From the IMG/VR virus record IMGVR_UViG_3300044557_000292, positions 32,001 through 96,000 of that record: 64,000 nt of DNA. One strand, written 5' to 3'. This document shows, piece after piece, positions 31,618-33,674 of this stretch (position 1 is its first letter; each line of letters opens with the position of its first letter). Both the position numbers and the translations under genes were made by a program. The notes beneath the pieces were generated by a model that worked only from the letters and a program-made list of their open reading frames with translations, ran no database searches and was not told where the DNA came from. This stretch comes from a virus. Taxonomy: Duplodnaviria > Heunggongvirae > Uroviricota > Caudoviricetes.

Positions 31618-31726
31618 TGGTACGTGACACATCCTCCCACGCTTCACGGTGACAATGATTGGTCTCAGGGCTCGCCCCCACTAGAATCACGGGAAGATCC
31701 TAGTATGCTCACAGCTTATGCGGGGT

Positions 31727-32110
31727 TCATCTCCTGAAGAACCCGCCGACTGGGAGCTGCTTGTCACCGTTCTTATTGTTCTTGACGATCGTGTCGATAC
31801 GCCATGATCCGGGGTACCTCGCCGCGCTCTCGAACAGGCGGCGGAGCTCACCCTTATGGTCAACGTGCTCCGTGTAAGTCCTACCGCTGTACGGGTTCGT
31901 GTAGGTGATCGTGTAGCCACTCGTGTACTCGCGCTTGTCCTGGTTCTTCTTGCTCAATGGTCTTACCGAATGGATTGGAGCTCTAGACTCAGTGATGGTG
32001 ATCTTACGACCGTCACTACCACGCCAGTAACCCGACACGCTCACTCCCCCGCGTTCGTATGGCTCGACCCACGTAGCACCCTCCTCGGGTGGGTTACCAT
32101 GATCACTCAT
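31727..32110 (-). CDS. tag-family protein 2 (tag plus ~70-aa basic cargo)
   Basis: MSDHGNPPEEGATWVEPYERGGVSVSGYWRGSDGRKI; GGGAGG RBS. Confidence 0.85.
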   Translation of the reverse strand: MSDHGNPPEEGATWVEPYERGGVSVSGYWRGSDGRKITITESRAPIHSVRPLSKKNQDKREYTSGYTITYTNPYSGRTYTEHVDHKGELRRLFESAARYPGSWRIDTIVKNNKNGDKQLPVGGFFRR

Positions 32111-32222
32111 CTTTATTCCTCCCTATGTACTTGAACCTTTTCCGCTTCTATATTGATCTAACGTAGGATACGAGTTCAAGGCTCAACCCAGCAACGTGGG
32201 GAATACACGGGGTTCATCCTAT

Positions 32223-32238
32223 GTTACAATAGAATCGT
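32223..32238 (+). promoter_or_regulatory. conserved promoter motif copy 5
   Basis: GTTACAATAGAATCGT, directly after a repeat half-unit, upstream of ORF 32268. Confidence 0.7.
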
Positions 32239-32267
32239 AATCATTTACTTAGAGGGGAATCAGAATC

Positions 32268-32738
32268 ATGCTTCGACTCGACATTGTCATCAACATCATC
32301 GTCATGGGCGTCCTCATGCTCGCCCTCATCGCTCCAGTATCCCTGGTCGTGAGATCGTGGAGATCTAACGGTATAGAGGATCACAACCTAGCGGAGGTCT
32401 TATCAGTCTTCCTCGGCGTCATTCTTATCTTCATCATGATCATCATAATCTTCCAGCTCGCACCGTTCAACCCGAAGTACTGGACGATCAACCAGTACCA
32501 CGGCACGGTCACGAGCATCAGCAAGACCGTCGTGAGCACGGGAGACGGTGGGGCTAACGCGACACCGTCATTCCTCATCCACATGAAGAACAGTGATGGC
32601 AGGCCAGACGGCAACGCTTATTTGTCAACAGATACCAGACTCCTTGGCTATGGTAGGGGTGACGACTTGAGCCTGGCCTGCACGTGGGATTGGAATTACG
32701 CGGCTGCCGACAAGCTTGAGTGCACTGTGTCCAAGTAG
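32268..32738 (+). CDS. membrane protein, two TM segments plus small beta domain
   Basis: GAGGGG RBS; hydrophobic N-half; C-terminal Cys pair. Confidence 0.75.
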   Translation: MLRLDIVINIIVMGVLMLALIAPVSLVVRSWRSNGIEDHNLAEVLSVFLGVILIFIMIIIIFQLAPFNPKYWTINQYHGTVTSISKTVVSTGDGGANATPSFLIHMKNSDGRPDGNAYLSTDTRLLGYGRGDDLSLACTWDWNYAAADKLECTVSK

Positions 32739-32874
32739 AACTCGATTGGGATCGGGGTTGGAATGGAATTTCCGGACACGATTGCAGCACGCCACGACCC
32801 CGGGCTGGTCGAGCACACGTCTGTTATCCCCACCGCTTATTCGGTGGTTCATCCTAGAAGTCAGGTCGAGTCTT

Positions 32875-33441
32875 ATGAGGAACAAGTGGATAGAGCAGGA
32901 GATGGATGAAGTCGCGTTCTTCCATCGTCACCCGGCGAAGGCGATGGTCACCGTATTCCCCTGCTCACTGTCACGAAAGGCACGCAAGACCGCGCCAATA
33001 TCAGTCACCGAGTATGATGACAATGATGGGTTCAAGTACGTGATCAGACAGCCGCGGAGTGGAGAGACGCTGCCGTGCACCATGTTCAAGAACAACGATG
33101 ACGCGAATCGTATCACCGCGGAGATGAATGCTCGCTCGTTGTCTTACCGTGACATCGGAAGACTGTACGGGTATCCAGAGAGCGCTACCAGATTCTTCGA
33201 GTACATGGACGATAGTATTAGGGAATACCTGGAAGGCCATCAGGATGAAGGTCTTGATTCCATAAATGTCTACAAGCTTTACAACTCGCTCGACAGGGTG
33301 AGCTGTTGCTACGGGGGTCTGAACTTCATTACGAGTATGGATCTGGTGGACACCGCAAGGGAAGAGTTAGAATCAATGTACGGTGAGGATGGGTATGACG
33401 AGGAGTTCTCGTGGAGGCCGTTCATCCTCAGGGAAGAGTGA
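32875..33441 (+). CDS. hypothetical protein
   Basis: MRNKW start within ORF 32716..33441; IGRLYGYPESA motif. Confidence 0.7.
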   Translation: MRNKWIEQEMDEVAFFHRHPAKAMVTVFPCSLSRKARKTAPISVTEYDDNDGFKYVIRQPRSGETLPCTMFKNNDDANRITAEMNARSLSYRDIGRLYGYPESATRFFEYMDDSIREYLEGHQDEGLDSINVYKLYNSLDRVSCCYGGLNFITSMDLVDTAREELESMYGEDGYDEEFSWRPFILREE

Positions 33442-33607
33442 CGATCAATGCAGGTTCAGAAGACTACTCGTAATGACGCGGTATCAATATAACGGGTATC
33501 CCCCGCTTATGCGGGGTTCATCCTTGGATGCTGGCATCGAATGGGCGGAGTGATGGGCAGCGCGTCTCATGATCACGACACGCTGGTATTTCCTATTGCC
33601 GTTGGGT

Positions 33608-33623
33608 GTTATAATAGAATCGT
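33608..33623 (+). promoter_or_regulatory. conserved promoter motif copy 6
   Basis: GTTATAATAGAATCGT, 12 nt before the repeat unit at 33636. Confidence 0.75.
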
Positions 33624-33674
33624 AAGCAAATAGAAATATCACCCGCGTTGCGGGGTTCATCCTAGGGAGGAATC

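Follow-up and report, generated by a model that had tools for sequence, protein, structure and literature searches.

What are the solitary sequences resembling type I-E CRISPR repeats that stand against and between whole genes in this DNA, and do they act on a host or on the element that carries them? The stretch analysed (hereafter, the window) comprises 64 kb and covers bases 32001-96000 of a record that is 419,707 bases long and is classified as viral. A sequence-only reading of the window had proposed RNA decoys, mRNA processing that senses the CRISPR system of the host, or an array of gene-sized cassettes. Our preferred answer, to which we give a probability of roughly 0.55, is that the units are relics of the replicon's own arrays, which were planted here and later collapsed and decayed.

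Repeat units in the window

Four exact copies of GGTTCATCC are found in the 64-kb window (positions 32211, 32846, 33515, and 33654) and span at most 1.45 kb. Shuffles of the window contain a mean of 0.83 copies, and four copies were reached in one of 100; the clustering has a P of ~2e-7, corrected for 44 windows of such size. Together with two further copies these make six units between 31705 and 33663 (U1 to U6, Table 1), in agreement with the five to six reported earlier. The units were scored with a two-half profile of the array repeat, which gives 34.6 bits for U5, 28.5 for U2, 27.6 for U6, and 17.1 for U1, whereas shuffles of the whole replicon yield 0.3 matches at ≥19 bits, 1.9 at ≥17 bits, and none at ≥21 bits. 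U1 is the weakest of the profile-scored units and marginal against the shuffles; U3 and U4 were assigned to the repeat by their exact 3' match. The type I-E identity proposed for the units was right, as their match to the array repeat of the replicon is above chance. Searches of Rfam gave only two matches, both at chance level.

Table 1. Features of the repeat locus (window coordinates).
Feature	Position	Strand	Description
U1, degenerate repeat	31705..31733	+	3' half intact, 5' arm broken; overlaps stop of convergent 127-aa gene
127-aa gene	31727..32110	-	no Pfam or PADLOC family
U2, inverted full-length repeat	32179..32206	-	current array type (3-nt loop), stem broken
U3, 3' half only	32207..32220	+	back to back with U2; ends 2 nt before extended -10 box
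Predicted extended -10 promoter	32222..32238	+	carries replicon-wide downstream motif
156-aa gene	32268..32738	+	N-terminal half hydrophobic; no family
U4, older-type repeat	32823..32855	+	6-bp stem CCACCG/CGGTGG, intact 8-nt handle
187-aa gene	32878..33441	+	between sister units U4 and U5 (641-nt segment); no family
U5, best-kept unit	33496..33524	+	perfect 6-bp stem and handle
Predicted extended -10 promoter	33607..33623	+	replicon-wide motif; -10 hexamer ends 20 nt before U6
U6, repeat in predicted 5' UTR	33636..33663	+	5-bp stem, bottom pair broken
RBS (33664-33670) and 58-aa gene (33675-33851)	33664..33851	+	hydrophobic N-terminus

Repeats of type I-E consist of a stem-loop followed by an 8-nt handle. 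The cognate stem folds in only three of the six units (U4, -9.4 kcal/mol; U5, -13.2; U6, -8.6; compared with -11.0 for the array repeat and -4.1 for U1), and the same three keep exactly 8 nt after the stem. The complete combination of stem and handle is thus present in U4 and U5, partly present in U6, and absent from U1, U2, and U3. The compensatory stem noticed earlier at 32823 does form in U4, whose arms both contain insertions, of 2 nt on the 5' side and of a T on the 3' side. U4 and U5 have diagnostic letters in common and can be regarded as sister copies around one gene.

The placement of several units had also been described correctly: U6 has a -10 box on one side and an RBS on the other, U1 overlaps a stop codon (that of the 127-aa gene), and one unit, U2, is inverted. 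U2 sits 70 nt upstream of the 127-aa gene, U4 lies 21-24 nt ahead of the next gene, and U5 begins 55 nt past the stop of the 187-aa gene. The handle of U6 abuts the RBS and is predicted to pair with it. The statement that single genes separate the units applies to some gaps, but U5 and U6 are separated by 112 nt of non-coding DNA and U2 and U3 are back to back. With 112-641 nt between units, compared with the 35-36 nt spacers of the replicon's arrays, the six do not form an array, and the leader comparison found no leader homology left upstream of the window units in this replicon. An intrinsic terminator (hairpin and T run) was found on the unit strand in none of the six, the one match, on the reverse of U6, being at chance level. 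None of the four enclosed genes (127, 156, 187, and 58 aa) could be assigned to a Pfam or PADLOC family above the cut-off, and protein-atlas searches with the 156-aa and 187-aa genes returned no named family. A single homologue was found for the 187-aa gene (78%), and the first ~35 codons of the 127-aa gene are a module that recurs at nine other places on the replicon.

The replicon and its own type I-E system

A simple caller predicted 417 genes on the replicon, and the Pfam scan covered 239 of the 417 proteins. These 239 include VirB4-like, TcpE, and coupling-protein domains and pilus genes, as well as DnaE, DnaB, DnaG, RecA, a gyrase subunit, and a sigma factor; no capsid or terminase family was detected among them. 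The replicon has 50 tRNA calls in one cluster, and its RNR matches Actinomycetota at 58-60% (16 of 401 genomes passing the cut), the host being placed at the level of Actinomycetota. We infer that the replicon is a conjugative megaplasmid of an actinobacterium.

A full I-E operon (cas3, cas8e, cas11, cas7, cas5, cas6e, cas1, and cas2) is located at 244.5-253.5 kb of the genome, with eight open frames, no internal stops, and the Cas3 motifs present; cas6e occupies 245842-246462 of the genome. The absence of cas genes reported earlier therefore holds for the window but not for the replicon, on which the operon is 179 kb and the nearest array 63 kb from the units. Exact copies of the 27-nt repeat number 80 in three long arrays, and 73 of the 75 spacers there begin with a pyrimidine. 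The spacers have no detected targets in phages or plasmids (one array each searched) or on the replicon itself, where the best match is 25/33 and the null reaches 23. In array 3, two exact repeats flank a 902-nt insert with a whole gene (262 codons, pilin-like N-terminus), and in array 2 a 220-nt insert is flanked by two damaged repeats. The handle TTCATC, found in five of the six window units, recurs at the old ends of arrays 2 and 3; their terminal repeats, some with a 4-nt loop, end in TTCATCC, as do U3-U6. Given the match to the element's own array repeat and these common ends, the window units are, as judged from their letters, copies of this replicon's own I-E repeat, mostly in the older array-end form.

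The presence of a cognate system with eight open cas frames on the same replicon speaks against the host-directed framing of decoys or sensing. Decoys of the Racr type (RNA anti-CRISPRs) would sequester Cas6e and Cas7 belonging to the I-E system of a host or rival, and the units do resemble them as standalone repeats on a mobile element, with U5 intact and U6, one of the six window units, directly after a promoter. However, three of the six cannot fold the stem, and the repeat is the replicon's own, with intact cas genes, whereas described Racr candidates are not associated with cas genes. Since the element has an intact I-E system, a decoy would first disable its own immunity. No anti-CRISPR gene was recognised among the four neighbours with libraries that cover few Acr families, and we consider decoys very improbable. 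Processing of mRNA by Cas6e is possible at U4, U5, and U6 and would sense the plasmid's own Cas6e.

The window units are not the only copies outside the arrays. The two-half profile detects 12 such copies at ≥19 bits, compared with 0.3 in 10 shuffles, and with half and gapped copies the total reaches 18, six in the window and 12 elsewhere, either standalone or in mini-arrays. All 10 copies at ≥21 bits outside arrays are at non-coding sites. At 17.7 kb of the genome, the end of an unrelated reading frame is fused directly to a full leader and one repeat. Mini-arrays occur at 264, 343, and 397 kb, and a two-repeat array lies among the tRNAs. Pairs of repeats at spacer distance are found at 264, 314, 343, and 397 kb and not in the window; those at 264, 343, and 397 kb have degenerate ends, and in two pairs the spacer itself contains the -10 box of the next gene. 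Four leader-repeat sites are canonical, and two mini-arrays have a second leader type. The leaders of the mini-arrays at 264 and 397 kb are of common type (78% over 103 nt), and the genes that follow encode a PIF1-like helicase and a protein with a weak DUF4238 match. Leaders are homologous over 76-271 nt upstream of the repeat, whereas the 120 nt downstream of the 18 units have in common only a promoter motif and two 14-nt matches; the homology that runs up to the repeat and stops there puts the right junction at the repeat end. An abutment of convergent stop codons (U1, 418 kb, and 17 kb) was considered as a further pattern and rejected (3/22 against a null of 9%, P=0.34).

Among 22 standalone or array-terminal repeats, eight have TGnTAYnAT within 20 nt after the repeat. 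This is the case for 1.4% of intergenic positions and 3.9% of those upstream of co-oriented genes (P ~1e-6, for a pattern chosen post hoc and units that are not all independent). Conversely, three of the 18 units lie 9-21 nt downstream of a -10 box (U6, 20 nt; 397.2 kb, 21 nt; 264.1 kb, 9 nt). Cas6e would cut read-through RNA at the repeat, so a gene past a repeat would need a promoter after the repeat, and the promoter adjacency fits such a survival filter.

The adjacency could also mean that the palindromic repeat is a DNA operator, recognised in its DNA form by Cas1-Cas2 or a different plasmid protein and controlling the adjacent promoters. Units on either side of -10 boxes and the non-coding location of the strongest copies are compatible with this. 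Nevertheless, the distance from repeat to -10 box in the upstream units varies from 2 to 12 nt, a poor fit to a fixed protein contact, the dyad is broken in most copies, and only five of the 17 copies of the replicon-wide promoter motif (at ≤2 mismatches) have a unit within 45 nt. We regard operators as quite improbable.

Guides of the CreA, CreR, or Cracr type, similar to crRNAs, would steer Cascade to repress promoters. The repeat-spacer-repeat pairs with a common leader at 264 and 397 kb are of the appropriate form, and the spacer at 397 kb resembles another promoter at 86% over 36 nt. Against this, the best seed-anchored matches of 18 pseudo-spacers score 10-14.5 on the replicon while shuffled controls score up to 14.5, no seed match next to an assumed AAY PAM was found on the replicon for any of the six window units, and the window units are not paired at spacer distance. 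This explanation is very unlikely.

Origin, decay, and possible use of the units

We counted stem decay in 16 ungapped units, with U3, U4, and one gapped unit set apart. A perfect stem is present in only two of the 16 (U5 and the 17.7-kb copy). None of the 27 arm substitutions in these 16 is compensatory in register; eight lead to a G-U pair and 19 break a pair. The changes fall in the 5' arm in 19 cases and in the 3' arm in eight (P=0.052).

Relatives were compared using short contigs (151-713 nt) from eight runs, of 19 with matches. Several contigs span U4, U5, or U5 and U6 with the order unchanged, and the contigs of the eight runs contain neither joints at unit borders, as cassette exchange would give, nor an empty site. 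The relatives bear further changes in U5 and U6. A contig of relative X16, which belongs to a 91-95% lineage, matches 31777-32065 (25 differences) and then runs into the end of a canonical leader on the strand of U2. This leader at the U2 locus, seen in one contig of depth 5 with 30 leader letters visible and possibly an assembly chimera, may be taken as the most direct sign of a former array here. U4 of X16 is without the 2-nt insertion in the 5' arm and has no gap in the 3' arm, which suggests that the T in the 3' arm is the earlier change and that the stem was rebuilt in this genome by the insertion on the 5' side. The U4 stem therefore looks secondarily repaired, an outcome that hairpin-templated repair would produce as well. 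A T insertion at the same place as in U4 is also found in U5 of X16, where it breaks the stem, and within three letters of it in U6 of X12; in X14 the handles of U5 and U6 are altered identically. Such matching changes in neighbouring units point to gene conversion among neighbours or to recurrent mutation.

Wider searches of the accessible records gave no related contigs with context, either by plasmid and phage BLAST or among metagenome and genome contigs by protein, and viral contigs yielded only unrelated or distant matches. A scan of contigs for the repeat pattern found at least 238 loci, with none of this replicon family among the matches listed. One locus (L035) resembles U5-U6 in spacing but is unrelated. 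In X13, a foreign 16-nt end is joined at 32848, the predicted U4 cut; it occurs in a single contig, does not come from the replicon, and was set aside. The RNA run X15 contains three short contigs at the locus, of a kind showing neither ends nor processing.

A gene-sized cassette array, in which whole genes are captured between duplicated repeats like giant spacers, through long-DNA integration by Cas1-Cas2 or repeat recombination, is supported in its anatomy by the sister units U4 and U5 around one gene and by the 262-codon gene between two exact repeats of array 3. The diagnostic letters that U4 and U5 have in common are joined in X16 by what is apparently the same T insertion. In addition, the five direct units bound segments of 474, 604, 641, and 112 nt, each of which begins with a pyrimidine like 73 of 75 true spacers, although this pyrimidine may simply be the last base of the repeat. 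Against the proposal, the short contigs from eight runs show no exchange and the same order where spanned, no leader is left, one gene is inverted, and no tyrosine integrase was found on the replicon (PF00589, 0/1; controls 14/14). We consider the cassette array improbable, although a live alternative.

A regulon coupled to Cas6e or Cascade is unlikely, though a serious candidate. The element's own Cas6e would cut repeats in 5' UTRs or between cistrons, and the genes would respond to free Cas6e or Cascade, for example upon attack by an anti-CRISPR. The predicted cuts would fall at 32848 in U4, 33517 in U5, and 33656 in U6. The stem and exact 8 nt of U4, U5, and U6, the apparent repair of U4, the predicted pairing of the U6 handle with the RBS, and the position of the three units that follow a -10 box and precede a gene all agree with it, as do the two mini-arrays with a common leader ahead of the helicase and the weak DUF4238 match. 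On the other hand, U6 and the 264-kb unit have lost the bottom pair of the stem, a perfect stem is missing from 14 of the 16 ungapped units, and the fold of U6 is no better than shuffles (z=-0.17). The X16 sequence diverges 60 nt past U5, whose stem is broken there by the T, and eight repeats are upstream of a -10 box, hence outside the transcript of that promoter.

With stems mostly decayed, no guide target found, and no cassette exchange seen in eight runs, host-directed decoys are unlikely and array relics are the best explanation. Under the relic explanation, leader-plus-repeat units would have become attached to new DNA through the 3' end of the repeat; either Cas1-Cas2 or recombination involving a repeat or spacer would have made the joint, and the junctions would persist mainly where the neighbouring gene keeps its -10 box downstream of the repeat. 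Leaders and spacers would then have been lost via repeat-to-repeat recombination and deletion, leaving, as the putative end state, lone repeats or repeat halves next to promoters and between genes. A minority, namely U4, U5, and U6 in the window and two mini-arrays outside it, may have been retained as Cas6e sites, and a few units might still be cut by the element's Cas6. Several observations count against relics: the promoter association is far above chance, the 3' arms are better kept, U4 is apparently repaired, no leader homology was found upstream of the window units in this replicon, and the contigs of relatives contain no empty site.

A bolder proposal, which we hold to be rather unlikely, is that the CRISPR machinery has been turned into a system of gene shuffling and gene control in this megaplasmid family. 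Repeats would be joined to promoter-bearing genes as giant spacers by Cas1-Cas2 or spacer-guided recombination, and the element's own Cas6e and Cascade would cut and gate mRNAs at U4, U5, U6, and the 264-kb and 397-kb loci. If true, this would be a regulon that reports the state of the plasmid's own immunity.

As relics, the units would show the spread of CRISPR leader-repeat units over a replicon, ending against promoters. At least seven seeding events on one plasmid, in addition to an array split by a whole gene, would bear on the origin of new arrays and of regulatory mini-arrays. Cleavage of U4, U5, or U6 in vivo, should it occur, would amount to natural processing of ordinary mRNAs by Cas6e, a phenomenon of which we found no report in a literature search that covered few subscription papers. 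Nor did that search find reports of gene-sized spacers or of spacer promoters driving downstream genes.

Comparison with known systems

Comparisons with published systems draw on the accessible parts of the papers cited. Standalone repeats are described there as often arising and disappearing near active systems (Shmakov et al. 2023, 10.1101/2023.03.03.530964); most are attributed to spurious duplication, and some have been exapted. The standalone repeats (SRUs) and mini-arrays of that study are enriched inside cas loci and depleted elsewhere. In contrast, the 18 copies here are up to ~180 kb from cas, six of them clustered in a 2-kb stretch; many abut the promoter of an unrelated gene, and the search for a target promoter found none.

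The likeness to Racr (Camara-Wilpert et al. 2023, PMC10651486, as far as accessible) is that both are solitary repeats carried by mobile elements, in some cases right behind a promoter; the differences are the intact cognate cas operon and arrays, the loss of the stem in half of the units, and the lack of a recognised acr neighbour. Screens for solitary repeats of the Racr type on fragments should be read with caution, as an element may encode the cognate cas operon as far as 180 kb from its solitary repeats. Cracr guides target cas or toxin promoters (Liu et al., 10.1101/2024.10.29.618823, accessible text). The repeat pairs with degenerate ends at 264, 343, and 397 kb are similar to CreA, CreR, and Cracr, but no match of a spacer to a promoter is above chance on the replicon, and in two pairs it is the spacer that holds the -10 box of the next gene.

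Routes that bring long DNA next to or between repeats have precedents, again going by the accessible texts: the phage PhiAP1.1 integrates into CRISPR repeats (Varble et al., 10.1101/2020.10.09.333658), and spacer-target recombination is a known process (reviewed in PMC8616872). Here, however, the inserts are single genes, no tyrosine integrase was found, and the route is putative.

A further likeness is to pMP7017 of Bifidobacterium breve, described in the accessible part of PMC10832533 as a conjugative megaplasmid of actinobacteria that carries both a tRNA array and a type I-E CRISPR-Cas system. Only 13 of the 417 predicted proteins match it. Scanned whole with its own repeat, pMP7017 (NZ_KM406416.1) has three weak matches outside its two arrays, compared with 0-3 in five shuffles. 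A comparable scatter of repeats is absent in pMP7017 despite two I-E arrays and is therefore not automatic, which weighs against the relic explanation.

An arrangement of copies far from cas, against unrelated promoters and with genes between sister repeats, was not found described in the literature searched, and the supplements of Shmakov et al. and Liu et al. may list similar loci. The locus differs from the known cases in the number of copies far from cas, in their siting against unrelated promoters, and in the whole genes between sister repeats.

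Mini-arrays and a leader fusion outside the long arrays

Two mini-arrays, at 397.2 kb and 264.1 kb, are the strongest candidates on the replicon (G000, the whole record) for functional regulatory units. Both have a leader of ~100 nt in common, and in each the single spacer carries the -10 box predicted for the gene that follows. That gene gives a weak match to DUF4238 at 397.2 kb and encodes a PIF1-like helicase at 264.1 kb. A leader-repeat fusion is found elsewhere on the replicon, and the opposite-strand frame at this site is presumably a cysteine-hydrolase fragment. The replicon also has a tRNA cluster, with 50 calls over about 14 kb, in which a mini-array of two repeats and the remnant of a leader separate two of the tRNAs.

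Locations of repeat-associated and dispersed features (L, stretches of G000 in local coordinates)
Feature	Position	Remarks
Mini-array	G000 397.2 kb (L027 12232-12400)	
Mini-array	G000 264.1 kb (L003 12087-12250)	
Leader-repeat fusion	G000 17.4-18.0 kb (L014 7419-7990)	one repeat and full leader, joined to end of opposite-strand frame
tRNA cluster	L023 16483 to L024 9944	
Type I-E arrays	G000 1-1146 plus 419309-419707; 242130-244385; 331006-333492	
262-codon gene	G000 331225-332161 (L004 6225-7161)	between two exact array 3 repeats; own -10 box
Dispersed element	window 31511-31625, 3049-3155, 21558-21656, 59472-59570	nhmmer
Promoter signature	window 12733, 14391, 27922, 30129, 32222, 33607, 62444	

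Long arrays and dispersed sequences

The type I-E arrays have a period of 62-63 nt, made up of a 27-nt repeat with a 3-nt loop and spacers of 35-36 nt. Array 1 contains the terminal repeat of the record. The Cas7 of the replicon is 434 aa long, with an acidic tail past the end of the Pfam match. The N-terminus of the 262-codon gene inserted in array 3 appears pilin-like on reading its sequence, and a Pfam search with this gene gave no match.

An intergenic element of ~100 nt, with imperfect inverted ends and a T run at its centre, is dispersed over about 19 replicon sites (nhmmer, 20 matches). Two CRISPR leaders each have a copy upstream, in which the end of the element matches the final 9 nt of that leader, and another copy lies within array 2. 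The element is possibly MITE/REP-like or a recombination substrate.

Two other sequences recur. The promoter signature TGTTATAATRGAATCGT occurs replicon-wide, in 17 copies if up to 2 mismatches are allowed; the same replicon encodes a protein with sigma-70 region 2. A ~35-residue N-terminal module, starting MSDHG and finishing YWRG, is found at window 32000-32124 and nine other replicon sites, where it heads many otherwise unrelated genes, often in an identical RBS context.

Relatives and nature of the replicon

Window 33977-34207 is missing from short contigs of relatives in sequencing runs X11 and X12, whose loose ends resume at about 34208; this absence is unrelated to the six degenerate repeat units nearby. 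Although the record is classed as a virus, its gene content, with 239 of 417 proteins scanned, is of the conjugative megaplasmid type. The replicon has few known relatives, and 13 proteins match pMP7017, the Bifidobacterium breve conjugative megaplasmid with type I-E CRISPR-Cas.
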